Under the pieces are notes generated by a model. The model saw nothing but the letters and a program-made list of their open reading frames with translations. It did no database searches and was not told the DNA's origin. Below are positions 27,901 to 63,038 of a stretch of 64,000 nt of DNA, one piece after another (position 1 is the stretch's first letter; each line of letters opens with the position of its first letter). This stretch comes from Vairimorpha necatrix. Its lineage: Eukaryota. Position numbers and translations under genes: made by a program. The DNA lies in assembly GCA_036630325.1 (NCBI GenBank), contig CP142733.1, positions 248,001-312,000 on the forward strand. The letters are read 5' to 3'.

Positions 27901-28060
27901 TTACTTCTTCAAACCCATTTCATAAATTCTTGCCTTCCATATAGACTCATCTACTCCATCCAACTCTAGCTTATAAACTATTCTCTTGATTTCTTGTAAC
28001 ATTATTCTAGCCTCTTGACCACAGCCATCACTTGTTGACTCTCGATTTGGTATCGCCCCA

Positions 28061-28108
28061 TGTATTTATTTATCATAATGATGGGTAAAAACATCAAAAT
28101 ATATAACA
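28061..28108 (-). repeat. 5' LTR, 48 bp
   Basis: tgtatttatttatcataatgatgggtaaaaacatcaaaatatataaca, bounded by the PBS and the TSD. Confidence 0.9.
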
Positions 28109-38092: not shown

Positions 38093-39241
38093 GGTTAAGT
38101 TGCGATGTTACCCCCCCTAAAAAAATTAAAAAAAGGGGGAGAAAATAAAAAAAAAGACAAAACTAAAATTTATTCAATTAATCCAAAATCAAATTCAGGG
38201 GCTAAATCGTAATTTAAAAACCATATATTTTGAACTTCAAAGAAGCGTAACATTCTTTCAAGTAGTGATTCTCTATAAATTAACTTAAAACGAGCTATAT
38301 AAAGTCTTCGAATGAGATTCATTAAAGAACCATGGCCTGTTCCTTCTTTGCGCAATTCCTTTTAATTACAGGATACATTCCCTCAATTGTTTGGGTGTGG
38401 GCGCCTGTTGTTGGATTTACAAAATTTTGGCTATGATTTACAGTTAAATGTAAATAGTTATATTCCGAACATAGTTCCGAAAACCCTTCATAACCCCGCC
38501 AATAATCAGTAATAATTGTAGATCCAGGTGCGATTTTTCGTTTTTTTAATTCGACAAGAGTATTTCTTGATCGATTTTCATTAATTTCGAAAAAAAGAAT
38601 TGCTGTCTCCTCGTACAACTCCACTAACGGCCCAAACTTGGTATTGAAGGATTCTACCGTTATGGTTTTTACTTTTAACAAGCAATGTCTCGTCTATTTC
38701 AACTACGAAATTTAAACCTCCTAAGGTTTTGTTTTTTATATAGTTGAAATGGGATAAGAATACAGCGTTATTAAAACGCGTAAACCAGCGAGATGCGGTA
38801 CTACTATCTATATCCAATTTGATAGTAGATGAAACATTGCATACACCTTTAACCCATTTACGCAGCAAAATTAAAAGATCTTCGATATCTAATCTAGAAC
38901 TTTTAAAAATGCTTTCCTTGTAAATGTTACCTTCGTTTGAGCATTTTCTCCCATTTCGTCGTAAGTAACAACGATATTTGTCCAAATTATTTCTAATTTT
39001 GGTCATGGGTGTCATGCACTTATTGCACATTGGTACCATTATTATATTTTTTACAAGAAGAAATAAAAATAATTCCTCCTTTTTATATATTAATTTTCTA
39101 AAATTCTTTATGTTAATTTTAGGGGCATAATTTTATTCCTTTTTTATTTTTCCTCTTTTTTTTATTTTTTCCTCTTTTTTTTATTTTTTCCCCTTTTTTT
39201 AATTTTTTTAGGGGTGGGGGAGGTAACATCGCAATTTAACC
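38093..39241 (-). mobile_element. Merlin transposon, frameshifted
   Basis: TIR GGTTAA(G/A)TTGCGATGTTACC; motifs VEIDETLL, ITDYWRGY and AHTQTIEG. No TSD seen. Confidence 0.9.
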
Positions 39242-40802
39242 GAGAAAACTAAAAAACGACGTTATTTATAGAGTATTCTATATCTCATATATATATAAGT
39301 GCTTAACATAATTGGGGTTTAATATTATTACTGAATACAACATCCCCCTCCCGGCGATTAGTCTCATTCAACATACTGTAAATCGCCTACACCCTTAAGA
39401 TCATAATGCCTTTTTCCCCAACCTTCCATTTGTAATCTCACTATATATGAATCCACTTGGCATAGCTCAATCACTCTTCCCATGTCTAAAAATCGACCCT
39501 TACTATACTTATTACATCCCTTAAAAACTCATTCTTGGCAACTCCAACTATCTGGTTCCTTTTGAATTTTTCTTTAAACCAACTTTTAAACTGCTGCGCA
39601 TACTTTCCCTCAGGACTATTCTCCATACTAACATTTCCTGTATTATCGGTTCAAGCTTCAACTGGCGTGCACTTAATTCCAGCATTAAAACTTAAATTAT
39701 ATTTCTCAATAGGTTCATAAACCTTGGTCTCAAATTTCTCTTTTTGGCTCTTTAAAATACTATCTTTTACAGTTCAAATAATTCTTTCTACTCTTCCATT
39801 ACTTCTGTGCGACTCAACGCTGACCTTTCTATGAATAATATCCAAATTTCTACATAGCTCGGTAACTTTTTCGTTGCAAAACTCTTTACCATTTTCCTTA
39901 ATGATTTCCTCTGGTTTTCTGTCCTGTTTACACAAATCCTTAATAAATTCTGCAATTACAATTGCGTGCTTGCTCTTAAATACTCTTCCCCATAATCTCC
40001 TTGTAAAGTAATCAACTGCTAAGACAATGACGCTTTTTCTATACTGAATTCTATTAAATCTAAGCCAACCTTCTCTAAATATCTTGTTGTGCTCACTAAA
40101 TCAGTACCACCACTCGTTTTTCTATTATCAATCTGACAAGTCTCGCAATTCTTAAGTACCTTTTCGATCTGATCCTTAATTCCTGGTCAATAATACTGTT
40201 TCCTCAACTCATAATATACCGTTGTTCTGCTTCTGTGTCTCAAATTGAAATGACAATCCATTATTAATCTCTCTCTGTCTTGTTCCAAAGGCATTTCACT
40301 TTCTCTACCACTATCAAATGCCCAGTATTCTTTACCTTCTACAATTTTACGTGCTTATTTCTTTTCCCTTCTATTTGTTTATCACGGCGTGTTTCATTTC
40401 TCTTTTTCTTTGCATTCTTTTCTTTTGTATATATCCTACTTAGAGCATCGGCTACGACACTATTTTCTGGAGTTCTATATTCTATCTCGAAATCAAATTC
40501 CTGATTTTCTCGACCCCCTATTAATTCTAGCATTTTTAAAGTCGGGCTTAAATCTTATTTCGCCCAACGCTTTATGATCAGTTTCTATTTTAAATTTCCT
40601 GCCTCTTAATTCATATTCAAACTTTTTAACGCCTCCCCCCAAAACTGCGTACATTTTCTTTTCTGATATTCCATAATTAATCTCCGCAATGGTAAACTTC
40701 TTAGACGCCCACTGTACTGGCACCCATTCTCCTTGATTATTTTTCTGTAACAATACTGCACTCATGCCTACATTACTAACGTCAATCCTCAACAAAAATT
40801 CT

Positions 40803-41910
40803 GGTGCTTCTTTGGTATGCGATCAGAATTTTTTTTTAAAAAAAAATTCTGACCCCCTAAAAATGGAAAATAGTGACTTTAAAAATTCTGATCGCATACC
40901 AAAGAAAAGCACGAAAATCAAAATGCAGGCTATACAAAGGCTTTTCTATGGTATTGACGACTGTTTAAACTCATTACTTGAGTTAAAAGTCTTGAAAGAG
41001 CAAAAGACGTGCTTTAAATGCAATGAGATTTCAAATGTTGTATTATATAAGGAGAGAGAGGTTAAAAGAGTGGTATACAGGTGTTCTAATTATAAATGCA
41101 GTGCTAAAATCTCAGTTAACAAAGGAAGCAAGTTACCTTTATATAATTTTTGTGAATTAATATTTTTAATTTTGTGTAGGAGTAGTTATTTTACTTTAGA
41201 GGCAAAACTAGGAGTTTCTTCATCGACAGTTTCCGGTGCAAAAAAAAGAATTAGAGAAATTTTTAAAAACAAAATTTCTAAGAGGCTTATTATTGGTGGA
41301 CCAGGAAAAATTGTCCAAGTTGATGAGTCTGTAATTTGTAGAAGAGGTAAAATAAGAAATCCAACAAGTTATGACGATATAATCCCTGCAACTGTTTGGA
41401 TACTAGGTATAGTAGAAGCATCTAATCCTACGAACTTTTACATTACAGTGGTGGATAATAGGAAAGTCGAGTGTTTAACAGTTGCTCTAGAAGGTAAAAT
41501 AGGCGTTGGTTCGGTTTTACATAGTGATGGTCATCCGAGTTATCCAAGTTTGCACGAAATCTTTGTCTTAACATAAGGTAGTAAACCACTCTATCGTGTT
41601 TAAATCTGCAGATGGTACTCATACCAATAACAATGAGAATGTATGGTCGCAGCTAAAATCTGAAATGACCAAAGAACATGGAGTTAAACGTAATGAAATT
41701 GATTCATGGCTCAATAAATTAATATTTAGAAAAAGTTTTAGTAGAGGGGACAATTTAGAGAAGTTTTACGACTGTTATGTTGATTTATTATATAATTTAC
41801 TCAATTAAATCAAATTTATAGTATTTTTTAACGTTTTTTTCATATTTTTTTCATTTTTTTTTCCTTTAAAAGGGGGGTCTTGGTGTCCGATCGCATATCA
41901 AAGAAGCACA
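40803..41910 (+). mobile_element. Merlin transposon, nearly intact transposase
   Basis: TIR GGTGCTTCTTTG(G/A)TATGCGATC; TSD aaaattct/taaattct. Motifs VQVDES and HSDGHPSY; frameshift near 41550. Confidence 0.92.
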
Positions 41911-42812
41911 TAAATTCTTTATCATAATCTGCTATTTGCAGCTTTCATAAGCATTTCAATACTTCTTTTAAATTATTTAACTCGTTGTTCATATCATCTG
42001 TCCACTTCCAATTATCATTCTTCTCTTTTAAACCGTCTGTCAACCTAACTGTCAATCCGGCGTAATTCTTAATAAAATCTCTGAACCAACCCGTCATTCC
42101 TAAAAATCCTTTTATATCTGACGCGCATGTGGTATCGGAAACTTTGGGGCTTAATTTTCTTTATATCTGACGGTATTTTATTTTCTCCATTTAAAGTGCT
42201 CACTAATAATTTAACTTCTCGTTGACAAAATTGAACTTTATTTGCATTCAACCTCATATTGTTTTCCTTCAGTCTACTAAATACCTTTTTCACTATTTGG
42301 ACGTGTTCTTCTATCGTTCGGCTGTACAACACAATATCGTCCATATACACCTCTACTCCTTTGCCTTTCATATCTCTAAAAATTCTATCCATAATTCTCT
42401 GCAACATCTGCGGCTATTCTTATATCACATAACCATAGAGTTCCATTCATAAACCTTGCCATTGAAATCAAACGCCGTCTTATGTTTTTCCTCCTCCTCT
42501 ATCTCTATACTATAGAAAGCTTCTTATAAATCGAAAGCCGTCATATATTTTGCACCTTGCGTAGCCCTTACAACATCTCTTATGTTAGACAATCTATACT
42601 CGTCCTTTTCTACAATATCGTTCAATGCCATCAAATTACTAACCAGTCTTATCTTCCCACTTGGCTTTCTGATTGACCTTATAGGATTCCTCCAACTTGA
42701 ATTTGACTCTCTTATCACTTTCCTTTTTTATTAATCTTTTAAATATAACTCTGCATCTTTTATCAACGCCTGCGGAACCATTTGTCCCTTTTTAAATACC
42801 TTCCTACCCGCT

Positions 42813-43694
42813 TCAGGGTGCTTCTCCGTTTTGCTGCCCTAAAAAAATGGGGCAGCAAAAATAAAAAAAAATATATTTTATAAAATCAATTAGAACATCC
42901 ATTTCCTCATTCTTGAATACGTTATTTAAAAAATTTTTTCTAAAAGTAAATTCTTCGAGCCAAGATTCGATATTCACACGTTTTACTCCGTGCTGTTTAG
43001 TCATTTCAGATTTCATACCAGACCCAAAATTCTCAATATTATTAGTATGAAAACCTTCTTCATTAGTAAATCCTATTGAATGATTTACAATAATGTGTTT
43101 GAGTTTTAGATTCGCTGCTACACCGGGATAACTAGGATGGCCATCCGAAATAAGAACTGATCCCGGTAAGACTATATCTTCTATTATCTTTGTTAAAGTA
43201 TTTATCTTTCGATCCGGAACTTGCACTATACAAAATTTTTTTCTATCTACAGCTTCTATTAACCCCAAAATCCATACAGTATCTTTAATTCCATCATCTG
43301 CTCTAGATGGAACTCTAATAGTTCCTCTTCTACACAGTACAGTTTCATCAACTTGAACTCCCGATCCACCGATTTTGCAATCGGTTTCCAATTTCTTTCT
43401 AATATATTCCCTCAATTTAAGCTTTATTTTTAAAATAGTGTCATTTGACACACACGTTAAACATTTAATTAATCTATAATTGCTGTTACAAAGGACCAAG
43501 AACACAACAAAAAGAAAAAATTCAAATGACAATTTAATCCCAGGTAAAAAGCTGTTTTTGGCCCTGCATTGTTGTCTCATACACCTATAAACTAATCTTT
43601 CCTTTCCCCTTTCCAATAATATTGTAAGCTTTGCAACAACATGATCATAAAAACCACATCGTCTAATCAAATTAATAATTCCAGTCTCTATCAT
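42813..43694 (-). CDS. Merlin/IS1595-family DDE transposase (termini probably frameshifted)
   Basis: 293-aa ORF with VQVDETVL, ISDGHPSY and HTNNIEN. A CCCC-proximal ATG at 43762 is out of frame with it. Confidence 0.8.
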   Translation of the reverse strand: MIETGIINLIRRCGFYDHVVAKLTILLERGKERLVYRCMRQQCRAKNSFLPGIKLSFEFFLFVVFLVLCNSNYRLIKCLTCVSNDTILKIKLKLREYIRKKLETDCKIGGSGVQVDETVLCRRGTIRVPSRADDGIKDTVWILGLIEAVDRKKFCIVQVPDRKINTLTKIIEDIVLPGSVLISDGHPSYPGVAANLKLKHIIVNHSIGFTNEEGFHTNNIENFGSGMKSEMTKQHGVKRVNIESWLEEFTFRKNFLNNVFKNEEMDVLIDFIKYIFFYFCCPIFLGQQNGEAP

Positions 43695-43860
43695 GTAGTC
43701 TTTACATGAGGCAAGCTGGAAAACAAAGGATGTCTAAAATTATAAAAGTTTCTTTTTGTCATTTTTGGGGCTTTTTTTAAAAAAAATAAAAATTATTAAA
43801 TTTTTGCTTTTCTCCGTTTTGCTGCCCCCCAAAAATGGGGCAGCAAAACGGAGAAGCGCC
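42817..43860 (-). mobile_element. Merlin transposon with hairpin-forming ends
   Basis: TIR GG(T/C)GCTTCTCCGTTTTGCTGCCCC; perfect TSD CGCTTCAG. Confidence 0.95.
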
Positions 43861-44372
43861 CGCTTCAGTATTAATTTTACATTTTTCCAGTTTACAATAT
43901 TTTATCTCCTCTTTTCTTAATCTAAAAACCTCTCCAAAACTCTTCGCATACTTATATAAATTCAATCTGATTCTCTTACTCTCCTCTTTAACATCATATT
44001 CTTTTTGATTTTTTTCAAATTTGACTCTAAGTCCTCTTTTTGATCTTCAAAAATCTCGCTCCTTATTGACTCTGATTCACTACCTACTTCTATTTTACAA
44101 CTTTGTCCTTGTTATTAAATTTAAAATAATTATCTCTATTAATCTTCAGTCTGCATTCAAACCCCCTATGCCCCTGTCTATCACAATAGAAGCATCTCGG
44201 TACTCTCAATTTTTGTCTGGGTTGTTCTCTACTAATTTCTTCATTTTTAGTCCTAGAAATAAATTATCTCATTTCCTCATATCTCTTCTCTTCCTCCTCT
44301 ATTTCCTTAATTCTCAACAATAGCTTCTTCCTTATTCCTTCAATATTTTCTTCCTTTTTATTATTTCTCAGA

Positions 44373-45643
44373 GGCCAATTTTCACTTTATGCCCCCTACA
44401 TATATAAATACAAATTTTTAAAAAATATCCCTTTTTTAGAAAATCAAAATGGAAAAAAAGGAGGAGAAATACTTAAAATAATAATTTATTAAAACATCAA
44501 AATAATTGTCTTTTGAGTTTTTAAGCAACATAAATCTTAACAAATAGGGATATATTAAACAAGTTGTTCTACATCTTATCGGCGTTTGGCGTTTTATAGC
44601 TGACCAATTCCCTTCTATGGTGTTAGTGTGGACACCTGTAATGGGATCTTTAAACCATTTGCTATGGTTAACAGTTATGTGGCTTGCAATTATCTGGTTC
44701 ATTTTTTAATATCCTTTTCACATATCAGAATAAACAGTGGATTGATTATTAATATATGTGGCAATAAGATTTAATAGGATATTTTTAGTTCTATTAGGTA
44801 CAGGAATTAATAAAAATTTTCTTCTTTAGTCCGTTCGACCATCCCCCAAACCCATATACTGTCTACTTTGTGTCCAACGTTGTATTTACGTTTTCCAAAT
44901 TTGCTTCCGTCTACTTCTACGATTGTATCCTTACCGCCCAGTGTCTCTCTTGCACTTTCCATGTATTTATGGTAAGCCTCGTCCAAACAAAACTGTTGAA
45001 GGCACCTCGATACAACACATGGGGGAATATATAACAACTTGGCGATTAGTAGAGGTGGGATTTTTGTGAGCCAGAGGTTCAGGATCTTTAACATAAGTAT
45101 ATGATCCAAGTGGGGGTTTGCAAATATGGTATTTGCAAAAAGGCTTCTCTCTTTTTGCACTTTTTACCAATGCATCTGATATTGTAACTCCTTTGCTGTC
45201 TCTTCCTAACTTCTTTCCCGCATTTGAAACATTTTACTTAAAGAAGTTTATAAATAATTTCTTCGTATGTTTTATTTATTTCTTCGTTAGTAAGCATAAA
45301 AATGGGGTATTAAAATTAAATTTTTTAAAATTGCTACAAAATCGTTGTAATAAGTTCAAATAAATGAATTTATTGTATGGGTTCATTACTTATTATTATT
45401 TATGATAATTAAAATATAAAGTAAAAAATTTGGATCGTATAATGACATATAGAGTTAAATTTATATTTGTATAATAAAATTGACATGATTCATATATTTA
45501 TTTTTGTATATTAGATTATTTTTAAGTACTTGTTTTAATTTTTTTTTCTCCTCCTTTTTTTCCATTTTGATTTTCTAAAAAAGGGATATTTTTTAAAAAT
45601 TTGTATTTATATATGTAGGGGGGGCATAAAGTGAAAAAGCTCC
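44373..45643 (-). mobile_element. Merlin transposon with long (~90 bp) TIRs
   Basis: Perfect TSD TTCTCAGA; TIR ..TTTTCACTTTATGCCCCC; motifs VEVDGSKFGKRKY and HTNTIEGNW. Confidence 0.93.
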
Positions 45644-46245
45644 TTCTCAGAATAAAATCTTTTAAATCTATCGAAGCCAACTTGAACAGCTCACTCTTCC
45701 ATTTCTCTCTATCCACATCTCTCAAATCCAATTCATACAATATACGCTCTAACTTCTGTAACATCTTTCTGACCACTTGGCTACAGTCCCCTTTTGTGAA
45801 CTCTTCTTTAGGTATCCCCCATATAAGTGCTTAACATAATTAGGGTTGAATATTATTACTGAATATAACAATATATTACATTTTATTGTTACTATTAAAT
45901 CAAAAAAAAATACATTTCAATTATTATTTAAACTTCGTCATCTAAAACAAATTAATCATAAATTTTTGCAATTAAGACTAGTAATTTTGCCAAACTATAA
46001 TTTTGTCATCAGTTACGTTCCTTCTAAATTTTAAAAAATAACAATTTAAACTCATAATTTTTATAAAAAATTACACGAGTCAATATTTTAAAAAAATTAA
46101 AACTCGCATGTACTGTTGTTTTTTGTTCTTGATAATGTTGAAAGATTACTCAATAAATTATGTCTTCGATAATTTATACAACAAGTAGCATGTATATGAC
46201 TTCTTTAAAAAAAACCATTATTTTTAATCATTAAAAAAATATAAA

Positions 46246-49200
46246 TGATGTATCCCACTCTGAAATACGTCTCCAAAATACTTTTATTAAAATTCAGTTT
46301 ATTATTAATATTTTTATTGTTTAATCCAGGTCTGTCCCCGGTCGTTGTTCGGTCTGTTTCCTTAATTCTTTGTTGGTTGTGTTTCATCTTGTATTGTGTG
46401 GGTCAGGGTCTATTTTTTATTTATAGCTTTTATTGTTTATTTGGTACCCAAACAAACAAACAAAACAAAACAAAACAAAATTAATAAATGTGTGGATCTT
46501 TAAGCAAGGATACCACAACCTGCCCTCTCCATTCTCAGGCCTGCAAATCAGTTGGTTTCGTTTTTATATTGTCAACATGTATCCACTCCTTCCTTTCGTT
46601 AATTTTTATCCAATTCTTTTTCTTACTCACTTCTGTAACCATGTAAGGCCCAACGTAACAATCGTCAATCTTATTGCCTGTAAAATTCTCGACAAATATG
46701 GTATCTCCAACCTCTAAGGTGTTGTGCTCTTTGCTACTGATATTTTCGGCCGCTCTGTCGCCTTTCTCGTCCGACCTTATTGTTATTTTAGGTTTATGAT
46801 CTTTAATTATTCTGTCCATGTCTAAGGCTGAATATCCTCTTAACACTGCATATGGTTGTTCTTGAATTCCCCTATGAAAATTTATATTTAGTCGTCTCAT
46901 AATTAATTTTGTGACCAAATTTATTTCTTCGCCTTTATACATTCTGAGAACTTCGGCTATGGTCTGATTAAGCCTCTCGCTTATTCCGTTGGACGAAGGG
47001 TGATATGCTGGCGTCGCTATTTTCTTGATATTATTTTTTGTTAAGAATCGATCAAATTCCGCACTTGTATACTGCTTACCGTTATCACAGATTAATGTTT
47101 GCGGGTAACCAAATTTCGTAAACCATTTCTCAAACTCTCTCGTCAGTTCTTTAGTGGTTGATTTCTCCAATAGTGTTACTCGCGTGTATCTACTGTATAT
47201 ATCTGTTATTGTAAGAAAGAATCCCCGTGTACTAAGTAACGAATTTTCGTACTCTGCCAACTCGAAGGGACCAAAAATGTCTGTGCTAATCTTATCCATC
47301 AGCTTATCTGACTCAATTTTATACTTCTTCTTTTTTCGTGTTTTCATCCTTTTGCATATTATGCAAGTTTTACAATTTTTAACTGTTTCTGAAATCTTTC
47401 GTTTAATGTCTTTTATGTTATAGACATTTCTGATGTTCTGATACATTACGGTTACTCCGGGATGAACAGTAAATTCATGTATTATCTTCAGAAATTCCTT
47501 AACGTTGTTGTCTTGTATTATATATCGATTATTCTCGTCTTTTAATTGTTTTCCATTTTCTTGTACTACCAACTTTTTCCTTATATATTTTTTTAGATCT
47601 TCCATGTCCTCGAATTTATCTATCATATAACAACGTGATAGTTTATCGGCTATGTGATTAGATGATCCTTCAATCGTGGTCAGTTCTACATCGTATTCGT
47701 TTAGAATCAATTTCCATCGTTCGGTTCTTTTTGAAATTTCCTTATTTTCAAATATGCAATTTCTACTATCAGTCTGTATTTCTATCTTGTATCCCTGTAT
47801 TAATGTTCTGTAAAATTCCAATGTTTTAACGATGGCAAACATTTCTTTCTCTACAATCGTATAATTAAGCTCAGACTGCGAAAATTTTCTGCTATAATAG
47901 CCTATTACGCCGCGTTCTTGGAATAAGACTGCTCCCATCCCGTTATTTGACGCGTCGCATTGTATTGAGAACTTTTTGCTAAAGTCGGGCAGTCTTAGCT
48001 GTGCCGTAGTTTTGATCTCTTCTTTTATCTCTTTTAACGCCAAGTTTTGGGCGTCTCCCCATTTCTCTTTGCAATCATTTTTCAATAGGCGCGATATACA
48101 AGAGACTCGCCTACTTACATCTGGTAAGAAATTGCGATACCAGGTGATTATTCCCATTATCTTCTGTATATCCTTTTTCCTGCATGGGATTGACTCTTCG
48201 TTTAATAGCTTATCGATATTTTTAGTATCTATTCTGATCCTGTCGTTTTCAATCACGTTTCCAAGTATTTCTAGTCTCTTGGTTGCAAACATGCTTTTTT
48301 CAAAATTTATTTTAACTCTGTAGTCCATTAGTCGGTTTAATACCTCTAGTAATTTCTCATTATGTTCTTCAGGAGTTGACCCATATATCACTATGTCGTC
48401 TATATAAACGATTATATTTTCGATTCCGTGTAATATATAATTAATCGTCTTTTGGAATAATTTGGGTCCTGATTTTATTCCAAATGGTATTCGTTTATAT
48501 CTGTATTGTTCTCCAAAAATCGTAAAGCTTGTAATGTCTCTGCTACTCTCTTCAAGTTCTAGTTGGTTAAACCCGTTTTTTAAATCAATTTTGCTGTAAT
48601 AAGTGTTTCCTCCAAGTTTATATAAACTTTCAAAAATTTTTGGTATTATACATATTTCATCTTTTATAAATTTGTTAACTGTACGATAATCAACTACTAA
48701 CCTCAGTTCCTTATTTTTCTTTTCGATAAAAAATGAAGGGCTAGCATAATAGTTTCTACCTCGTTCAATGATATCGTTAGTCAGTAACCTTGATATTTCC
48801 TTTCTAGCATCAGCCTCGTACTTTACTGGTACGGTATAGTATTTAAGTTCCAGTCTATGGTCTCTAATTTTTTCATCAATATAAAGGCTTAGCGGTTCTA
48901 CCTTAATTTTATCATGTTCTTCATTCTTTTTTATATATTCGGTCAATCTACGTGGTATGTTCGTTTCATTTAAAATTTTCGGTTCTTTTATTAATAAAAT
49001 TCTGTCATAAAGTATAGCATCTATTTCATCTGTTTCTATCTCTTCTGCGCCGATCATTGGTAAAATAGCGTTGTTTACAATGATTCTTTTGTTTTTATAG
49101 TCAAGTAACCAGCCGTTGTTTAGTAAAAAATCACTTCCTAAGATCATTTTTTCTGGCAAATTCTTGAGAATATGTACATCTTCATAAGTCACTTTATTTA

Positions 49201-50507
49201 GTCCCGCGAGTCTTATTTCCACTCTGGCTTTTTTATTAGTCTTTCCTTTTGCTCCGTTCCCAAATATAAGTGATATTTCGTCAGTTTCTTGTGTCTTTAT
49301 TTTTAACTTATCAGCTATTTCGGCACTCATAAAGCTCTTATTCGCTCCGCTATCGATCATTATGTCAATTGGAGTTTCGTTGATGGATCCTCTTAATTGA
49401 GTCTTCTCAAAATTCTGAACGTTTTCCTTTATAAAGTACACGTTTCTATTGTCTTTATTATCGTTATTTCTTTTGTAAAAATCCTTATCATATTTAGTGC
49501 ATTCCTCAGTGGTGTGGTTAGAATATTTATGCAACTTGCAGTATTTGTCTTTTTTAAATTCTGAATGGTTATTATGCATTGGTTTATTATCATTACTATT
49601 GATGCTGCGAAATTCTCTAATCTCTTTAGCTCTTATCGAAATTTTTATTTCTAAGCCCTTTAAAAATTCAAATGAAGCTTGGTAACTACCGAAACCATAT
49701 TCCAGTACTCTTCCGTACGTGAACTTCCCCAAGCCGGCATGGAAAGCTTCCTCAAATAGTCTGTCAACCTCTTCATCCATTAGTTTTTCCATTGTCCTTA
49801 CGATAGTTAGATTCTGTTTAATCGCGTCATAGTATTCTTGAATTTTCGTATAGTTTGTCTGGTGTATATTTAACAATTTTCTTCTGTAGTATCTTCGTTC
49901 CTCTAAAGGAAATTTAACCGAAATCAAATATTCCTTAATCTCATTCCATGTTTCATATTTATTGTAGTCCATAAGTTTATCATCTTTTATCAGTTGTCTT
50001 AATATTGCTAACTGTATTCTTTTATCCCATTTGTTAACTTCTATTAATGTTTCAATTTCTTGGCACCATTTTAAGATGTCCAAACTGTCGATGTCTTCTA
50101 TAATTTTTATTTCTTGGCCAAGTTTGTCTTCTAGTCCTTCTATCTTCATTGAGAAGGTTAGTGATTTAGTGTTAAATTGCTGTTCTTTTTTCTTCTTATC
50201 GTATTCTTTTGGGTTCTCGTCTTTTGAGCTCAAATTGATGTATCCCACTCTGAAATACGTCTCCAAAATACTTTTATTAAAATTCAGTTTATTATTAATA
50301 TTTTTATTGTTTAATCCAGGTCTGTCCCCGGTCGTTGTTCGGTCTGTTTCCTTAATTCTTTGTTGGTTGTGTTTCATCTTGTATTGTGTGGGTCAGGGTC
50401 TATTTTTTATTTATAGCTTTTATTGTTTATTTGGTACCCAAACAAACAAACAAAACAAAACAAAACAAAATTAATAAATGTGTGGATCTTTAAGCAAGGA
50501 TACCACA
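46246..50507 (-). mobile_element. Intact young Ty3/gypsy retrotransposon (4262 bp)
   Basis: Two 272-bp LTRs (46246-46517 and 50236-50507), identical by inspection, TG...CA; TSD ATAAA; PPT GGAGAGGGCAGG. Confidence 0.98.
46535..50377 (-). CDS. Single Gag-Pol polyprotein (Gag with CHHC knuckle, PR, RT, RNase H, IN with GPY motif), 1280 aa
   Basis: Motifs CKLHKYSNHTTEEC, IDSGA, RLVVDYR, YIDD, DASNNG, EKEMFA, ADKLSR, H..H..CKTC, CDNGKQY, SNGISER and GPY, in gypsy domain order. Confidence 0.97.
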   Translation of the reverse strand: MKHNQQRIKETDRTTTGDRPGLNNKNINNKLNFNKSILETYFRVGYINLSSKDENPKEYDKKKKEQQFNTKSLTFSMKIEGLEDKLGQEIKIIEDIDSLDILKWCQEIETLIEVNKWDKRIQLAILRQLIKDDKLMDYNKYETWNEIKEYLISVKFPLEERRYYRRKLLNIHQTNYTKIQEYYDAIKQNLTIVRTMEKLMDEEVDRLFEEAFHAGLGKFTYGRVLEYGFGSYQASFEFLKGLEIKISIRAKEIREFRSINSNDNKPMHNNHSEFKKDKYCKLHKYSNHTTEECTKYDKDFYKRNNDNKDNRNVYFIKENVQNFEKTQLRGSINETPIDIMIDSGANKSFMSAEIADKLKIKTQETDEISLIFGNGAKGKTNKKARVEIRLAGLNKVTYEDVHILKNLPEKMILGSDFLLNNGWLLDYKNKRIIVNNAILPMIGAEEIETDEIDAILYDRILLIKEPKILNETNIPRRLTEYIKKNEEHDKIKVEPLSLYIDEKIRDHRLELKYYTVPVKYEADARKEISRLLTNDIIERGRNYYASPSFFIEKKNKELRLVVDYRTVNKFIKDEICIIPKIFESLYKLGGNTYYSKIDLKNGFNQLELEESSRDITSFTIFGEQYRYKRIPFGIKSGPKLFQKTINYILHGIENIIVYIDDIVIYGSTPEEHNEKLLEVLNRLMDYRVKINFEKSMFATKRLEILGNVIENDRIRIDTKNIDKLLNEESIPCRKKDIQKIMGIITWYRNFLPDVSRRVSCISRLLKNDCKEKWGDAQNLALKEIKEEIKTTAQLRLPDFSKKFSIQCDASNNGMGAVLFQERGVIGYYSRKFSQSELNYTIVEKEMFAIVKTLEFYRTLIQGYKIEIQTDSRNCIFENKEISKRTERWKLILNEYDVELTTIEGSSNHIADKLSRCYMIDKFEDMEDLKKYIRKKLVVQENGKQLKDENNRYIIQDNNVKEFLKIIHEFTVHPGVTVMYQNIRNVYNIKDIKRKISETVKNCKTCIICKRMKTRKKKKYKIESDKLMDKISTDIFGPFELAEYENSLLSTRGFFLTITDIYSRYTRVTLLEKSTTKELTREFEKWFTKFGYPQTLICDNGKQYTSAEFDRFLTKNNIKKIATPAYHPSSNGISERLNQTIAEVLRMYKGEEINLVTKLIMRRLNINFHRGIQEQPYAVLRGYSALDMDRIIKDHKPKITIRSDEKGDRAAENISSKEHNTLEVGDTIFVENFTGNKIDDCYVGPYMVTEVSKKKNWIKINERKEWIHVDNIKTKPTDLQA

Positions 50508-50588
50508 ATAAATTTCAACAAAGTCTACTATTTATTATGTTCTATAAATCTAATCGTTCAAACAATTTTTACACAATATAATAGTGCT

Positions 50589-50813
50589 TGTCAAGGAACA
50601 GATCTCCAAGAGGTTCTAAGATGGCCCTAGAGACCGAAGAATACTATTCTATAAGTATTCCTCCCCTTCTCCCCTTAATGTTTTTGTAGGGAAAATAGAC
50701 AATATTTTCCCACCGACAAACATAAAAAAACTCATGCCCAGAAGGGTATGAAGAAGAATAGAAATTGTAGTTAAAACATTCTTCTTGGTCTGTTGGGAAA
50801 CCAACAGACCACA
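50589..50813 (+). mobile_element. 225-bp solo LTR (family of 13031-13252)
   Basis: TG...CA termini, TSD GTGCT, colinear with 13031-13252. Confidence 0.85.
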
Positions 50814-53144: not shown

Positions 53145-54189
53145 GGTTAAGTTCTCGACTTACCCCCCTCCCCCTAAAAAAAATAAAAAAATAAATTATT
53201 TGACCCATAATGAGAATTAAAGAATTCAGAAAACTCATCTATAAAAAATGAGTTAATGCAATTTTTAATTGCAAAAAACAATTTGAAGGTTCCTATGTGC
53301 AATAAATGCAATATACCAATGACTCAAAATCGGACCAACACTGAAAACTATCGTTGTTATGTAAGACGTGATGGTACAAAATGTTCCAACAAAGGAACCA
53401 TAATGAAACAAGGCGTTTTTAAGAACTCAAAATTGCCTATTGAGGATCTTTTAATATTGCTTTGCGAATGGGTAAAGGGTTCAAGTAATTTGGCCGCCCC
53501 GTTAGAACTTGATATATGTAAATGTACGTTATCAAGATGGTTTACGCGTTTAAATAACGCCGTGTACGTCTCCTATTCAACATATATAAACAATCAAACG
53601 ATCGGCGGCGTCGGTTGTATTGTTGAAATTGATGAAACTTTACTTGTAAAAAGTAAAAACCATGCGGAAGGGTTCTTTAATATCAAGTATGGGCAGTTGG
53701 AGGCGTTGTGAGAGGGGATGCAAATTCTTTTTTCTTTGAAATCGTAGAAAATAGAACAAGAGCTACTCTTGTTGAATTAATCACAAGAAAAATTGCTCCG
53801 GGGACTACAATTATGACAGATTGTTGGCGCGGCTATAGTGATATTCAAACAATCTGTGTAGAATATGAGTATCTACATTTGACTGTGAATCACAGCCAAA
53901 ATTTTGTTGATAATATAACTGGTGCGCATACTCAGACTATAGAGGGAATGTAGCCGGTTCTTAAAATAGAACTAAGAAAAATCGGAACTTGTCATGGTAC
54001 TATTATGAATCTTGTAAGGAAGATTTACATTAATAGATTCAAATTAATATATCGTGAAAATCTATTAGATAAAATGTTAGAATTTTTTGAAATAGGTAAT
54101 TTTAGTATTTTAGCATATGATATAATTTCTTAAGTAGATTTTACAATTGTGGAATAATTTTTTTTAGGGGGGAAGTCGAGAACTTAACC
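53145..54189 (+). mobile_element. Merlin transposon (family of 59188), frameshifted
   Basis: TIR GGTTAAGTTCTCGACTT; motifs VEIDETLL, MTDCWRGY and AHTQTIEG. No TSD seen. Confidence 0.92.
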
Positions 54190-54557: not shown

Positions 54558-57435
54558 TGTTACCAGAAGGAGAGCTGGTTATTGAAGAAGGCTTTTTATT
54601 AGAAGAAGAACTATATTTATTTGGCATATCTTGCCTATTTAAGATTCTTAAATAGTTTTAGTTTCGGATCTGAAACATAGATGGTTTCAGATCATTATCA
54701 ACTGTTTTATCTTTCAGTTTTAGTCTGATTATTGGCGTGTGCAACACAGCCGGTAAACCTCTCCCCTCCTTAGAACAAGGCTTCACTTCCAGGGAAGAGG
54801 TTATATCCTCCAATAAATCGTCATCTTTATTATATACTACAAAATCGTTTCGGTTTATAGAGTGTTCTATTCCATCTTCAAGACTCCTTACTTCATAGGC
54901 TCCTTTTAGTTTGTTTTTCATGACTATGTAGGGTCCTATATATTTTTATCAAGTTTGCTACTAATTTTCATATTTCTAATAAACACCAATGTTCCTTCTT
55001 TTACGTCGTCGGCGGATAGTTTGCTCGGCTTCTGTTCATCATATTTCCTAATATCCTCATCTCTCTTCGCACATACGAATTCTCTTATCTGGTTAGTCAG
55101 TCTTGTACGTTCGCTCAGATAATCCGCAGGGTTTATAAACAACATTTCAAAGTCGCTTGGTAGTTCTTTTAATGCGTTAGGTAGTACATTTTTCCTGCCA
55201 TAGAGCATTCCAAAAGGAGACATGTGCAATTTCTCTATGGGGGACAACCTGTACTGCATAAGTACAAGTGGTAATATTCTATCCCATTGGCTCTGATAAT
55301 CCGTTACCGCCTTCGATAACTTCACTACTAAACTTTGGTTTGTACGTTCCAAAAGTCCATTTGATTGTGGATGATAAGGGCTCGAGTGTCTGAAGTGAGC
55401 ACCGAATAGCTCCGTAATCTTTTTTACAATCTGATTAGTGAATTCTAATCCCTGGTCGCTTCTTATTATTTCTACTGTACCGTGTCGACAGAAGATATCT
55501 TTCATAATAAATTTTGCGATTTCGAATGCAGATTTATGCTTCACTGCCTTCGCCTCAACCCATCTTGTCATAGAGTCTGTTGCAACTATGATGAATCTCT
55601 TTCCTGATGTAATTTGGGTAGAGGGCCTATACAGTCAATTCCCAACATTTTAAAAGCCGAATCCAGTCTCGTTGCGAACACTACGAACTTTTTACGTGGT
55701 TTCTTATGTTCTAGGCACGTCACACAGTCGTTTATGACCTTTTAAACGTCTTCCTTCTTGATACTAGACGCTAATCTGTGTGACTTTAAAAACAGGATGG
55801 TCGCTTCTGTTCCTCCATGTCCTATGTAAGAGTGTGCTTCTCTTATCAAGTCTTTTATGCTCACCACGCTTTTATTCACACATAAAAATGTTTGTTTCTT
55901 CACTCCGTGCTCGTAAATTTCTTTTCTCATAAGAGTTAAATAGTATCGTTCCCGGGTCGAGTTGGTGGTTCAATTTCGCTGCACTTAAGTATGTAGAACA
56001 TTCTTTAATCACGGGGGATTGGCCTACTTCTTTAGTACGTGTTTCCTTTACTTTTGTGAGTTCATTGTAAAGGCGCAGACCATCGTCTCTTTCCTTTTCG
56101 ATCGAACTATGTGCGTCCTTGGTGCTCGTATATTCGTCACTCCCCCACGCTTTTATTTGCTCGTTCAATGTTTAGATTTTTCTATCATTCTCGAGAAAGT
56201 TATTTTGCTGGCCATCGAATTGCTTGTTAATCGAAGTACTCGTCTCGGAAAACCTCAAACTTCCATACAGAAGTGACGTCTGAGCTGTTTCTGCACTTGC
56301 CCACTTTTTAATCCGTCCATCTTCTTGTATAGACATTGTTATATCTATACTCTGTGGAATAGTTTGATTAAAATGTACTTCTTTTACCTTTCTTAGTTTC
56401 TTTCTTCCAATAAAATTGCTTTCGATAAATGGGTTGGACTCACCCGAGTCCAAACGCGTTCTTACTACGTCGCGGTTGATGGACCCTTCGATCGTAGTAT
56501 CGTTCGTGTCTTTTGACACTGGATCTGCCTCGATTAAAAACACCTTTTCCCCTTCGTGTTTCTCGCAGTCTTTAAATAAGTGGTCGCCTCCACACTTATA
56601 ACATACTAACTTTCTTGGACTCTCTCTTGTCCTTGTAGTATATGGCCTTGAAGTCCTCGTAGTTTTTGGCCTATTCTGTTCAGGTCTCTGCCTCGAACTC
56701 TCAATAAATTTATGATTTCTCTCATAAATCTTTAGTACAACGTCCCATGACGTTGCCTCTTCCACCTTTTCTTGAAGTGACGGTGGGAAATATCTAGCCA
56801 ATTCCTCCGTGATTCCCGAAATGCTGACCTTAGCTTTCTTGTTTAGCTTTACCAGGTCGTAAATGAAGCTTTCAATCTTCCTAGATTGAGGTCCAGAGTA
56901 AAGTTTCTTGTAAAGCATTCTAGTATGGTCAATTCCTTCCTGGAACTCTTCTTTCCCATATTTTCTTATGAAAATTTGTTTAAATTCCGTGTATGCTTCC
57001 ACCTCGTCTTCAACCATAGCCTCATACCATTGGAGCGCTATATCCCCCAGTTATCTCTTCGTATAGTTCAATAGTTTATTGTCACTCCATTCTCCCTCGA
57101 GATATTTGAATTGGTTAATCCAAACCCATGCATTCTCGCTTTGGGTCCCGTTGAATTTCACCATCGTGTTAGTTGATATTCCTAACTTATCTAGCAGGTG
57201 ATCCAATTTGTTGGATTTCGAATAGTTGTCGCCAGTGTTACCAGAAGGAGAGCTGGTTATTGAAGAAGGCTTTTATTAGAAGAAGAACTATATTTATTTG
57301 GCATATCTTGCCTATTTAAGATTCTTAAATGGTTTTAGTTTCGGATCTGAAACATAGATGGTTTCAGATCATTATCAACTGTTTCATCTTTCAGTTTTAG
57401 TCTGATTATTGGCGTGTGCAACACAGCCGGTAACA
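54558..57435 (-). mobile_element. RT-less LTR element: Gag-CCHC, partial protease, unknown linker, integrase (2878 bp)
   Basis: 200-bp LTRs 54558-54757 and 57236-57435; perfect TSD GTATC; PBS TGGCGACAACT; PPT AGGAGGGGAGAGG. Motifs CYKCGGDHLFKDC, RLDSGES, HSYIGHGG..CVTC, RSDQGLEF and SNGLLER. No YxDD or RNase H motifs seen. Confidence 0.92.
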
Positions 57436-57560
57436 GTATCATTTTTTTTTCCTCCAAAAATTATGCTTTCAGAAAAACAAATTAAAAAAGTTTTTGGTAA
57501 AAAACAAAATAAAACAAAAAATCCATATATTTAAAAAAAATCAACATTACCCCCCCCCCA

Positions 57561-58609
57561 ATGTTAGAATCAAGTGTCCTGTATAAAAGGAACTTTGCTA
57601 TTTTTGTAATAGCTTTCTAAGATGTTACAATTTGATGTTGTTTTATTTTTATAAAGTTGTTTATTATTGGCATTTTCTCTGCCGTGACTTATGTTTCTCT
57701 CTTCGACCATTTCGTACCCTTCCAAACCAAACTTTCTTTTATAATTTATTATTTCTTGTCAACATAAAAACAAACTTGGCCATACTTACGAATGTAGTAA
57801 CGCCATGCAACATTCATTCATTCGTTTGTTTGTTTCTTTATGTACTCATCTTGACAAGCCGCCGAAGATATTTGACATTTCTCTGGACATAAGTGACAGA
57901 TGGGATATTTGGCATCTGCCCATGTGATGTAGCAATGTACATCACATCAAGCTATGTGTTTTCTGATGTTTTAAACTTCTGGAGAAACAAAGAAGCACTA
58001 CAGTGTAACAAGAAGAATTATATTATCGACAATCATTCAGATGACGTGAGGGCGTTGTCTGATGATAAAATTGTCGATTTGCGGGTAGAAAAGGTTATAG
58101 TCAGCCATTCTTCAGTTGACGTAGGGGCGTCGACTGAAGAAGAAAGTGTTGAAGAGGATATAGAAGACTTGGTGGAAAATGTAGGTATGGAGAATGAGGA
58201 AGCGAGGGAGGTTAGTGAAAAAATGGGAGATTTGGCGATGAGGTATATATAGAAGAAGAAGGGAACGAAGGAGGGCCCTATAAGTTTAGTAGAGGGACTG
58301 GGGGAGTTTGAGGGGAGTGATGGCATATCTATGCCAAAAATCTTCTTCAAAGAGAAAGATAACGAGGGGCACGAGAAAATAATTAAAAGCGAAGAACTGA
58401 CAGAAGAAGATTTGAAGAGAATAGGCGATCAAATTTCCGATCTCTATTCTCTCCATCTTCTGGAAGTGGGCTTTAAAAGGATGAGGGAGGCGGAAGAGAA
58501 CTATAATAAGTCATGGAGAGGGAGAATATATAATGCAATAGGAAGACATTTCTGTTGTTTTGTGGAAAATGACGAAGATTCGGAGGATATTGAGGACGAG
58601 TTTGATTAA
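57561..58609 (+). pseudogene. Acidic family copy 4, interrupted at codon 5 by a solo LTR and frameshifted near 58245
   Basis: C-run then ATG TTA GAA TCA AG | insertion | C TAT GTG TTT...; the C-terminus ends EDSEDIEDEFD*. Confidence 0.9.
57575..57946. mobile_element. Solo LTR (372 bp)
   Basis: TGTCCTGT...ACATCACA termini with TSD TCAAG. Removing it restores the gene start. Confidence 0.9.
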
Positions 58610-58980
58610 AAAATAATATTAACAACTTCTTTTCTATGTCTTTTTTAATTTCGAAGTTTGTTCTCCACTTCCTTACTCATCTTAAAATTTGGGGGTATAA
58701 AAATATCAACAAAAATAATTTCACTAAAACTTAAAATATACTTATCAAAACAGGGGAATAAAAATCACATAAAAATGAATAAAAAGTGAAATATCACGCA
58801 ACGGAGGATTTAATGCAACATTACAGGGGGTTTAATCGTTATAAAGTCATATTTGAATTTCTATATTCCCACGAGGAATTCCTATAGTGCCATGTTTGAG
58901 TTTCTATTTTTCCATGATGAATTCCTACAGTGCCATGTTTAACATTCTATATTCCCATGTTTATATTTCTATATTCCCAT

Positions 58981-60618
58981 TGTCAGGCGACGAACCTACG
59001 CTGACAATAAGAATCCCCAAATACGACTGATTCTTATTTAATATAAATGTGATGGATTATATAAGTGACAGGTGGTAAATTAATATTGAATACGAGCATT
59101 TAGAGAGTTACTTTAATTTTAGCAATTTACTCTTTTCGGAATAGACCGTCGAAATGGTCTATTCCAAATATTTCCTATTTATTTATTGGTTAAGTTCTCG
59201 ACTTACCCCCCCCCCCCCCCCCCACCCCTAAAAAAAATAAAAAAAGGGGAAAAAATAAAAAAAAATAAAAAAAGGGGAAAAAATAAAAAAAAATAAAAAA
59301 AGGGGGAAAAATAAAAAAAAATAAAAAATTTGACCCATAATGAGAATTAAAGAATTTAGAAAACTCATCTATAAAAAAAATGAGTTAATGCAATTTTTAA
59401 TTGCAAAAAACATTTTGAGGGTCCCTATGTGCAATAAATGCAATATACCAATGACTCAAAATCGGACCAACACTGAATACTATCGTTGTTATTCAAGGCG
59501 TGATGGTAAAAAATGTTCTAACAAAGGAACCATAATGAAACAAAGCGTTTTTAAGAACTCAAAATTGTCTATTGAGGATCTTTTAATATTGCTTTGCGAA
59601 TGGGTAAAGGGTTCAAGTAATTTGGCCGCCACGTTAGAACTTGATATAGGTAAATGTACGGTATCAAGATGGTTTACGCGTTTTAATAACGCCGTGTACG
59701 TCTCTTATTCAACATATATAAACAATCAAACGATTGGCGGCGTCGGTTGTATTGTTGAAATTGATGAAACTTTACTTGTAAAAAGTAAAAACCATGCGGG
59801 AAGGGTTCTTCAATATCAAGTATGGGCAGTTGGAGGCGTTGTGAGAGGGGATGCAAATTCTTTTTTCTTTGAGATCGTAGAAAATAGAACAAGAGCTACT
59901 CTTGTTGAATTAATTACAAGAAAAATTGCTCCGGGGACCACAATTGTGACAGATTGTTGGCGTGGATATTGTGATATTCAAACAATCTGTGTAGAATATG
60001 AGTATCTACATTTGACTGTGAATCACAGCCAAAATTTTGTTGATAATATAACTGGTGCGCATACTTAGACTATAGAGGGAATGTGGTCGGTTATTAAAAG
60101 AGAACTAAGAAAAGGAGGAACTAGTCATGGTACTATTATGAATCTTGTAAGAAAGATTTACATTAACAGATTCAAATTAATATATCGTGAAAATCTATTG
60201 GATAAAATGTTAGAATTTTTTCAAATAGGTAATTTTAGTATTGTAGCTTATGATATTATTCCTGAAATAGACTTTACAATTGTGGAATAATTTTTTTTGT
60301 TTTTTTTTTTTTTTTGGGGGGGGGGGGGTAAGGGGGGTTAAGTCGAGAATTAAACGTTTTTTTATTTTTTTTTATTTTTCCCCCTTTTTTTATTTTTTTT
60401 TATTTTTTCCCCTTTTTTTATTTTTTTTTATTTTTTCCCCTTTTTTTATTTTTTCCCCTTTTTTTATTTTTTTTAGGGGTGGGGGGGGGGTAAGTCGAGA
60501 ACTTAACCTATTTATTTTCCAGCCCTTACCCCGAATCATGACTACAAATATTAATCCAAATAAATCTATTACTGATACTCCGTCATCTACTTCAGATCAG
60601 ACCTCGTATCTGATCACA
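58981..60618 (+). mobile_element. Solo LTR (~309 bp net) containing a Merlin
   Basis: TGTCAG...CTGATCACA termini, TSD CCCAT, inserted within the Tc1 subterminal repeats. Hairpin GGAATAGACC..GGTCTATTCC. Confidence 0.85.
59188..60508 (+). mobile_element. Merlin transposon, transposase 59340-60290 with a single in-frame TAG
   Basis: TIR GGTTAAGTTCTCGACTTACCCC; perfect TSD TATTTATT. TAG at 60066 corresponds to CAG in the sister copy. Confidence 0.95.
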
Positions 60619-60889
60619 CCCATGTTTGAATTTCTATATTCCCATGTTTGAATTTCTATATTCCTATGTTTGAATTTCTATAGTGCCATGTTTGAATTTC
60701 TATAGTGCCATGTTTGAATTTCTATAGTGCCATGTTTAAATTTCTATAGTGCCATCTTTGAATTTCTATAGTGCCATGTTTAAATTTCTATAATTGCCAT
60801 GTTTGAATTTCTATAATTGCCATGTTTGAATTTCTATATTCCCATGTTTAAATTTCTATATTCCCATGTTTAAATTTCTATAGTGCCAT
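60619..60889 (+). repeat. 22-bp subterminal tandem repeat of the Tc1-like element (~12 units; continues at 58850-58980)
   Basis: Unit catgtttgaatttctata(gtgc/ttcc). Confidence 0.92.
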
Positions 60890-62344: not shown

Positions 62345-63038
62345 TGTTGTAGACTGTTAGTCTTCAACATTTAACATATTTCCCTCCTTGTCAAAACTAT
62401 CAATGAATTTACTTGAATTTATTTTATTTTAAATAAAATTCCAGAAATGAAGGGTACACATAATAGAGTGATGGAACAGAGAACGAAAGAACAGTATGTC
62501 AGAGAGTCCAGAGGGTCTGTTATTAATAAAAGGCAATTTATTAAAAGTATTTTAAATACTACTTATTGACCGGGAGGGTCTCCCCGGGACACCACAGCTT
62601 GAATTTAAGTGCGAGTTAGTTGAGCATGAGCTACAAAAAGATTAACCATAGTGAGGTTAACAATAAAAAAGTAAAGTTAAGTTACACCGTTATAGGACGG
62701 ATATGAGGATCGAGACAGAGTTGAATATCATAGAGGATATTTATAGTTTTGATATGTGTGAATGGCTAGAAACATTCGGAAAAAAATAATTTCTAAACAA
62801 ATTGAACAGTGAGCAGTATGAGCTCGTTTTATGAGATTTTATAAGTAAAAATCCTTAGATGATAAAGTATTTAGAGGAGAATTAGTGAAAATTCCCGAAA
62901 GAATTCTAGCAGAGTTTATAGTATTGATAGAGCGGAAGTTGGATTAATAAATTATCTAATGTAAGACAAGAAAATTTTGAGTCGATAAGTAATTATTATG
63001 AGTACATTAATAGTTATATAAAATATTATAGTATTGTC

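Follow-up and report, generated by a model that had tools for sequence, protein, structure and literature searches.

Where does translation of gag-pol begin in the retrotransposons of a microsporidian, and is the start codon located inside the long terminal repeat (LTR)? The question is raised by a 64,000-nucleotide stretch of Vairimorpha necatrix DNA (assembly GCA_036630325.1, contig CP142733.1, positions 248,001 to 312,000 of the forward strand), called here the window and numbered from its first letter, which carries several Ty3/gypsy elements. A preliminary description of the window, made from its letters, proposed that gag translation starts inside the LTR in several unrelated gypsy families and that U5 and the primer binding site (PBS) are in this way protein coding. 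Our analysis was centred on the intact element of positions 46246-50507 (element A) and on its relatives, here called family A, and was extended to five further elements of the window (Z, B, C, D and E). The best explanation of the data is that the LTR of these microsporidian Ty3/gypsy elements carries the core promoter and that the AUG within the LTR is the start of gag-pol, a reading which we consider quite probable.

Element A and the start of its gag-pol frame

Element A is an intact 4.26-kb Ty3/gypsy element located on the minus strand (46246-50507). The segment 50236-50507 had been described as its 5' LTR, and this assignment was confirmed: it is 272 bp long, shows TG..CA ends and is identical in 272 of 272 nucleotides to the 3' LTR (46246-46517, 272 bp), the element is flanked on both sides by the target site duplication (TSD) TTTAT (50508-50512 and 46241-46245), and a polypurine tract (PPT) of 16 nt is found directly before the 3' LTR, one base past the stop region of the open reading frame (ORF) (46519-46534, minus strand). 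The gag-pol ORF (46535-50377, minus strand) has 1280 amino acid residues and encodes a capsid-like Gag, protease (PR), reverse transcriptase (RT), RNase H and integrase (IN). According to Pfam, the domains are located at residues 329-418 (PR), 551-706 (RT), 773-895 (RNase H) and 956-1127 (IN), which is the gypsy order, and the match to Retrotrans_gag is weak. Membership of element A in Ty1/copia (Pseudoviridae) was ruled out, since IN is C-terminal and not placed before RT. A zinc knuckle is present at Gag residues 280-293 (about 49499-49540, minus strand) with the pattern C-x2-H-x4-H-x4-C, and not the usual C-x2-C-x4-H-x4-C; the pattern is kept in the alignment consensus of the clade, and Pfam zf-CCHC shows no match to element A.

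The 1280-residue ORF starts, as stated in the preliminary description, at the ATG of position 50377, inside the 5' LTR and after CCC motifs. This start codon corresponds to LTR position 131, lies 142 nt ahead of the LTR end and is the sole sense-strand ATG of the LTR, where 4.95 are expected from its composition. The region directly upstream (50378-50415) shows a TATA-like box (50415-50401) followed by two CCC motifs (50398-50396 and 50392-50390), and an in-frame TGA (50395-50393) is found five codons upstream of the ATG. The first 47 Gag codons are encoded by the LTR (50236-50377) and include three in-frame AATAAA hexamers and most of an N-terminal motif (residues 35-47). Codon 48 is split by the LTR end, its first base being the last of the LTR, and the frame runs on through the position where the PBS is expected; in element A, as well as in elements Z and B described below, the first in-frame gag ATG is located in the 5' LTR and the ORF extends across the PBS position.

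A misplaced LTR boundary in element A, or a frame that is open by chance, would be an artefactual explanation of this layout. AT-rich and repeat-dense DNA such as that of the window gives many chance repeats and short TSD matches, and alternative boundaries were seen for some of its solo LTRs. A stretch of 75 codons separates ATG 50377 from the next in-frame ATG. Out of 20,000 shuffles, 0.27% kept it open (P = 0.0027), and the other two frames of the same segment show 5 and 10 stops. Together with the complete identity of the two LTRs, their TG..CA ends, the 5-bp TSD and the adjacent PPT, this makes an artefact highly improbable.

The next in-frame ATG encodes Met77 (50147-50149, minus strand) and is the rival start in element A. 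Translation from such downstream AUGs (Met77 in element A, ATG 916 or Met43 in element Z, ATG 57154 in element C and a conserved Met in elements D and E) would leave the LTR AUG as an incidental or regulatory upstream frame. No ATG is found in any frame between 50377 and Met77 (P ~0.026), and a leader cleared of upstream AUGs would look alike; by the same absence, the first AUG of the transcript would be either of the two codons, set only by the transcription start site.

Both starts were compared in the relatives of element A. A full phmmer scan of 1.84 billion representatives gave 157 matches at E <= 0.001, and an alignment of 65 sequences (element A and 64 relatives, with 17-46% identity) was obtained. 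Met77 is not conserved in this alignment: its column shows Met in three of the 65 sequences and mostly Ile, Tyr, Phe, Leu or Val in the others. The Nosema granulosis homolog, with 1281 residues and 45% identity over the Gag part, starts at a Met aligned with the element A start and has Leu in the place of Met77; its next Met is near residue 199, within the capsid domain. At least 10 residues are present upstream of the element A LTR-end codon in 58 of the 64 relatives, and in 26 of these 58 the stretch equivalent to residues 51-100 contains no Met. Furthermore, a hidden Markov model (HMM) of the N-terminal motif was made from residues 31-56 and run on 151 relatives. The motif was found in 53 of them (23 not used to build the HMM) with a median start at residue 19, and 43 of the 53 sequences begin with Met.

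Tertiary structure of the element A Gag was modelled with AlphaFold2 on the alignment of its relatives, with a mean predicted local distance difference test (pLDDT) of 81.8. In the model, the motif forms a helix (residues 37-44, pLDDT ~80), and a beta-hairpin (72-78/85-91) opens the capsid-like domain; the block 71-80 reaches a pLDDT of 93 and Met77 is located within the first strand of the hairpin. In a fold search of the PDB, the model showed only weak matches to capsid-like structures (PNMA2, dArc, HIV capsid and copia capsid), none with E <= 0.001 and the best to the PNMA2 capsid with E = 0.012. A query of the ESM Atlas gave only generic clusters of Gag. The segment upstream of Met77 is conserved and its replacements are conservative. 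These comparative protein data support real translation from the LTR ATG of element A, and the view that the codons located in the LTR and just past it belong to the conserved part of Gag in family A is likewise supported. We regard a start at a downstream AUG as unlikely.

Several points tell against translation from the LTR in family A. The database proteins are automatic ORF calls that favour the longest frame, and the evidence drawn from an upstream Met is partly circular. Residues 1-30 of element A are disordered in the AlphaFold2 model and are also poorly conserved. Part of the conservation of the upstream block may be owed to cis-acting nucleotides and not to protein function, and the codon-level statements on relatives are made from amino acid proxies plus two examples in the window. 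Two scans of the genome contigs with the element A protein and with its alignment gave no relative.

The LTR end and the primer position in family A

The position of the LTR end can be followed in the protein alignment. At residue 47, a codon ending in C is possible in 59 of 60 sequences (background 0.74) and, at residue 48, a codon starting with A is possible in 58 of 60 (background 0.48, P ~1e-16), which fits a fixed terminal CA of the LTR at that place.

One nucleotide past its LTR end, element A shows a perfect palindrome of 12 nt (50223-50234, minus strand), which corresponds to Leu49-Ser50-Ser51 and flanking bases. No TGG-type PBS was found after the LTR of element A, nor in an A-like copy at 62.5 kb, and the palindrome is present in its place. 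This copy is the decayed 5' part of a second family-A-like element (62448-62609, plus strand), with an ATG at 62448, the motif at 62548-62610 and the CA end at 62595-62596; its 12-nt palindrome, which includes two G.U pairs, follows the CA end at 62598-62609.

The residues encoded over the palindrome are restricted in the relatives. Position 50 of the alignment is occupied by Asn (28 sequences), Ser (18), Ile (12), Leu (3), Thr (1) and Glu (1), and never by Lys, Arg or Met; the residues of this position are those with codons from which the two central bases can be self-complementary. At position 51, 53 sequences have Ser and seven have Leu. In addition, positions 49 and 52 covary: Leu49 is accompanied by a possible A-start codon at position 52 in 39 of 40 sequences, Met49 by a possible T-start codon in 11 of 11 and Val49 by a possible C-start codon in three of three, and rows compatible with pairing are 53 of 54 in total. 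The association of Leu49 versus Met49 is significant by the Fisher test (P ~9e-9, a value not corrected for shared descent), and the neighbouring positions 47, 48, 53 and 54 show no association of this kind. This covariation of the outer base pair may point to RNA-RNA pairing between two genomic RNAs.

Absence of a tRNA primer site is shared with two known systems. Tf1 of Schizosaccharomyces pombe is also a Ty3/gypsy element without a tRNA primer, and the N. granulosis homolog of element A is labelled 'Tf2-6 polyprotein' by its source. In Tf1, however, the PBS pairs with the first bases of its own mRNA, whereas the longest complement of the 40 nt past the element A LTR, looked for within that LTR, is 7 nt; fold-back self-priming of the Tf1 type is unsupported in element A by this length. 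The second system, and the closest described parallel, is the Conserved Hairpin Site of the fungal copia elements GalEa, which, according to the text available of PMC5445492, have no tRNA PBS and show a short palindrome at the PBS position by the 5' LTR end. GalEa elements differ in that they belong to Ty1/copia and, in the same source, in that the final base of the LTR is part of their palindrome, which has a second, pairing copy 12-41 bp downstream (PMC5445492); in family A, the palindrome is 1-2 nt past the LTR and inside the Gag frame, and no downstream partner is predicted. RNA folding of 50120-50385 predicted only a local hairpin of 4 bp, and the fold is not more stable than those of shuffled sequences (z = -1.06).

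We tentatively raise the possibility that a clade of microsporidian-type gypsy elements has exchanged the tRNA primer site for a self-complementary sequence of 10-12 nt, N-UGA-NN-UCA-N', which is located 1-2 nt past the LTR and would pair two genomic RNAs, as a dimer linkage or as a primer. The same sequence doubles as the Gag residues (Leu/Met/Val)-(Asn/Ser/Ile/Thr)-Ser-x. As a primer, the partner RNA would be cut just 3' of the palindrome, which would place its 3'-OH next to U5. If true, this mode of priming would be unlike both tRNA priming and the Tf1 fold-back and would be encoded inside protein-coding sequence. The conserved N-terminal motif of Gag in family A appears overlaid with traces, at the nucleotide level, of the LTR end and of a palindrome that forms base pairs. 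Seen through the amino acids, such traces of the LTR end and of a pairing element at the primer site offer a way to locate LTR/PBS junctions from protein alone, and they raise the testable question of how these elements prime reverse transcription.

Further elements and solo LTRs of the window

Element Z is cut by the window border and only the 5' part of its gag-pol ORF (2-946, minus strand) is contained in it. The preliminary description had placed its start codon, ATG 946, inside an LTR of 916-1086. The codon is indeed located 31 nt ahead of the CA|TGG junction at 916, which supports the 3' end of the 5' LTR (916-1086, minus strand) and is followed by the PBS (915-903); the limit at 1086 is provisional, and the partner LTR is outside the window. 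A TATA-like box and a CCCCC motif are found upstream of ATG 946. A second in-frame ATG (916-914) spans the junction, with one base in the LTR and two in the PBS, and the next in-frame Met is residue 43. A lenient Pfam scan gave a sub-threshold match to the PNMA capsid at residues 23-107 (E = 0.033), into which a start at Met43 would cut. A start of the Z gag ORF at or before the LTR/PBS junction, with a coding PBS, is supported by these data unless Met43 is used; even the junction ATG, one of the downstream starts considered above, keeps the PBS in the ORF. The homologs found for Z are only V. necatrix copies with the same start, which do not discriminate between ATG 946 and ATG 916, and an AlphaFold2 model of the Z N-terminus made without alignment had a mean pLDDT of 37 and was unusable.

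Element B is flanked by a 5' LTR at 36380-36488 and a 3' LTR at 29371-29478 (both minus strand), with 92.7% identity between them, a PPT, a PBS at 36376-36364 and a TSD which matches in four of five bases. Its 5' LTR has in-frame ATGs at LTR positions 18 and 57, the second of which is also present in the 3' copy (position 56). The CCC-ATG reported at 29385-29390 belongs to the 3' LTR (29390-29385 in the sense of the element); it is located 17 nt before the LTR end and, as had been stated, in frame with the reading that continues past the 5' LTR, and it is found only in the 3' copy. No ATG is present between the LTR end and the open frame, which is entered from the 5'-LTR ATGs as the copy stands. 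In Z and B, the start codon is 17-53 nt before the LTR end and the ORF runs across a TGG-type PBS. Assignment of the B frame to gag is provisional and is made from its openness and position, which adds to the points against the LTR start; B has no Pfam match in the lenient scan, and BLASTP of the gag pieces of B and C against the Z Gag gave nothing significant.

Element C (54558-57435, minus strand) is internally deleted and has LTRs of about 200 bp, the TSD GATAC and a PBS at 57234-57222. Its LTR ATG had been described as in frame with gag, which holds for the 3' copy, where the frame is open to the LTR end; in the 5' copy (ATG 57304), it stops after 15 codons, and the two LTR copies differ by one base in an A run, which is shorter in the 5' copy. 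No CCC motif is found upstream of this ATG. A downstream ATG at 57154 lies within the open gag frame, in which a TAA (57053-57051) follows 34 codons past that ATG, and the lenient Pfam scan gave a sub-threshold Retrotrans_gag match (E = 0.1). Both the short frame of the 5' LTR and the ATG at 57154 would favour, in element C, a start downstream of the LTR, and the missing CCC motif tells against the LTR start.

Elements D and E are decayed elements of the minus strand which are related to each other (53% identity in IN). Element D (24944-28108) has the TSD TTTAA, a PBS at 28060-28049 and LTRs of 48 bp (5', 28061-28108) and 49 bp (3', 24944-24992); element E (39294-45870) contains Merlin-type insertions and has the TSD TATAT, a PBS at 45821-45811 and two LTRs of 49 bp (45822-45870 and 39294-39342). 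Both show exact 5-bp TSDs, PPTs and TGG-type PBSs, and E ends in TA rather than CA. The LTRs reported as 49-bp repeats with an ATG 16 nt before their end are thus real: they contain an AT-rich stretch, a CCC motif and an ATG 16-17 nt before the end (28076 in D and 45838 in E), and D has an AATAAA as well. These LTRs are far shorter than those known from other elements, and a search of the literature on the shortest LTRs gave nothing specific. As the copies stand, their LTR ATGs are out of the gag frame, and in opposite directions in D and E. The earlier proposal that correction of an indel in a G run restores the frame was given no weight, since any out-of-frame ATG can be fixed by one base. 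An aligned Met about 60 nt past the LTR is conserved in D and E and is a possible true start; upstream of it, the differences between D and E at the three codon positions are 5/10/10, which gives no coding signal. A word-based search found no homologs of the D and E Gag N-terminus, which is weak evidence. In D and E, as in C, these features favour the downstream start, and they stand against the LTR start in these three elements.

Considering the six elements together, a PPT precedes the 3' LTR in A, B, C, D and E, Z, B, C, D and E carry a TGG-type PBS at most a few nt past the 5' LTR, and exact 5-bp TSDs flank A, C, D, E and two solo LTRs. The 64-kb window contains no tRNA genes and hence no partner in it for PBS complementarity. 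The proposed coding of U5 and PBS was supported for A, where it is conserved, and for Z and B, and did not hold for the 5' LTRs of C, D and E in their present state.

The solo LTRs had been listed as further carriers of CCC..ATG frames that run to the LTR end. This was supported for two of the three. The first (13031-13252, plus strand) has the TSD AAAGA and an ATG frame that runs past its end; the second (24562-24880, minus strand) is a probable solo LTR of family-A-like type, with a CCC..ATG ORF of 62 amino acids running past the end at 24562 and a weak motif match (E = 0.07). For the third, at 58981, neither a TSD nor a second copy was found, and it was not confirmed as an LTR. Another solo LTR (50589-50813, TSD GTGCT), about 80 bp from the 5' LTR of element A, is 76% identical to 13031-13252, and its ATG frame stops inside the LTR. 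Each solo LTR had been proposed to be a portable promoter with its own start codon; in this one of the two paralogous copies, the open ATG frame has been lost. A six-frame scan with the family A motif gave two other weak matches, at 57588-57626 (minus strand, E = 0.37) and 36959-36991 (plus strand, E = 0.006), which are probably more decayed 5' ends of LTR and gag.

The preliminary description considered the families unrelated and the LTR start a convergent adaptation to a nearly leaderless host, and neither claim was sustained. All the elements are Ty3/gypsy, with 25-53% identity among their Pol pieces, the family A trait is shared by relatives down to 17% identity, and Z, B, D and E show a single geometry. 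A layout that is real but inherited from old microsporidian gypsy lineages, and not acquired repeatedly, has in our view an even chance of being correct. It is favoured by the footprints common to the family A relatives, by the one geometry and the TGG-type PBSs of Z, B, D and E, and by published trees in which microsporidian gypsy elements fall in three microsporidia-specific groups with a single polyprotein ORF (text available of PMC4202319). However, the architecture differs between family A, with a palindrome and an ATG 142 nt before the LTR end, and Z and B, with a tRNA-type PBS and an ATG at 17-53 nt, and A and Z share only 25% Pol identity; at least two origins are possible. The layout of family A appears old and inherited within a large clade, and the geometry of Z, B, D and E (CCC, ATG 16-31 nt before the LTR end and TGG-type PBS) may be due to common descent.

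Promoter context, related systems and surroundings

The sequences upstream of the LTR ATGs resemble the microsporidian core promoter. A CCC motif is present within 20 nt upstream in five of the six LTR ATGs (A, Z, the 3' copy of B, D and E, but not C; D and E are not independent), in relation to 195 of 2196 ATGs (8.9%) in the window background, and in five of the six a TATA-like box and CCC are found directly before the start. According to the available text of the published studies, Encephalitozoon cuniculi shows 5' untranslated regions shorter than 7 nt and a CCC motif just before its starts (PMC2803860), V. necatrix has a CCC/GGG motif within 30 bp in 77% of the genes whose protein products are functionally characterized and in 54% of the transposons predicted (PMC10759460), and in Anncaliia algerae a GGG motif precedes the start of a transposon Pol (PMC4072689). 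These promoter data make the link to short leaders a reasonable one.

In the mechanism that we propose, the LTR would supply a minimal promoter of the host type, a TATA-like box and then a CCC motif; transcription would start a few bases before the first AUG, where ribosomes would initiate gag-pol. The Gag frame would then take in the remainder of the LTR (R/U5, including the AAUAAA signals, and the terminal CA) and the primer position that follows it. Such a start requires that the frame stay open across R/U5, the LTR end and the primer site. The three AATAAA hexamers past the element A ATG all read Asn-Lys, which is one of the two stop-free frames of the hexamer. Furthermore, in 33 of 44 relatives the 30 residues that precede the motif include an Asn-Lys pair, where shuffles expect 16.7 and control segments give three of 44; this enrichment agrees with a poly(A) signal maintained in the coding frame. 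From the anatomy, the conservation and the footprints observed, we infer the putative transcription start, poly(A) site, in vivo initiation codon and primer.

In Ty1 of Saccharomyces cerevisiae, GAG also starts within the 5' LTR. The Ty1 PBS is inside the GAG ORF (PMC4974528, in the text available), a further likeness. Ty1 differs in being a member of Pseudoviridae whose GAG and POL are in separate frames and whose primer is tRNA-iMet, whereas the elements of the window show the Ty3/gypsy order PR-RT-RNase H-IN in one ORF and family A has no tRNA-type PBS. The Ty1-like layout is known, and what is new here is its occurrence in microsporidian gypsy elements. The microsporidian Ty3/gypsy elements of Parisot et al. 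2014 are similar in their one gag-pol ORF and microsporidia-specific groups (PMC4202319, main text as available), and that text makes no mention of an overlap of LTR and ORF. Likewise, the available text of the papers on promoter motifs (PMC2803860, PMC10759460 and PMC4072689) makes no mention of a start codon inside the LTR or of a coding U5 or PBS. In the literature covered, which is incomplete, we found no report of a microsporidian element whose gag starts inside the LTR. The original description of the Nosema bombycis LTR retrotransposon may be relevant to LTR gag starts.

If the preferred reading is correct, translation from the LTR AUG would show how a retroelement can adjust its regulatory sequences to a host whose mRNAs are almost leaderless. 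An LTR of as little as 48 bp, together with its direct surroundings, would accommodate the promoter, the start codon, the poly(A) signals, the integrase end and the primer site, and part of this sequence would have a double role as RNA signal and protein. In the annotation of microsporidian genomes, starts would be placed wrongly, or true N-termini masked, by LTR finders and gene callers that assume gag to start past the PBS.

The window has a G+C content of about 31% and contains dense transposon remains, among them Ty3/gypsy pieces, Merlin/ISXO2-like transposases and DDE_3 transposases. Its best protein matches are from V. necatrix: the first 330 residues of the element A ORF show 99% identity to an NCBI V. 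necatrix protein with the same start, and element Z likewise matches V. necatrix proteins. The published V. necatrix genome has 28.3% G+C and 50% repeats (PMC10759460, in the text available). On the basis of these matches and of the published G+C and repeat content, the host was treated as such a microsporidian.

Finally, other repeats were observed in the window. A segmental duplication of about 8-10 kb (1767-9545 versus 10784-20673, 83-88% identity) includes arrays (7800-8550 and 18700-19680) whose repeat unit is about 108 bp long. Nested DNA transposon pieces of the DDE_3 and Merlin/ISXO2-like types are found in the old element B (30790-31248, 32495-32911 and 33582-34088) and in the old element E (40737-41576 and 42813-43733), and further Merlin-like copies are located at 13584-14246, 38322-38693, 53681-53953 and 59334-60068. 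Homopolymers of 10-20 C or G bases (57550-57559, 59206-59228 and 60480-60490) adjoin repeat arrays of T-rich and CCCC units. Two tandem arrays with a 22-bp unit (58848-58980 and 60620-60889) show CCCATG, a promoter-like motif plus start codon, in many of their copies.

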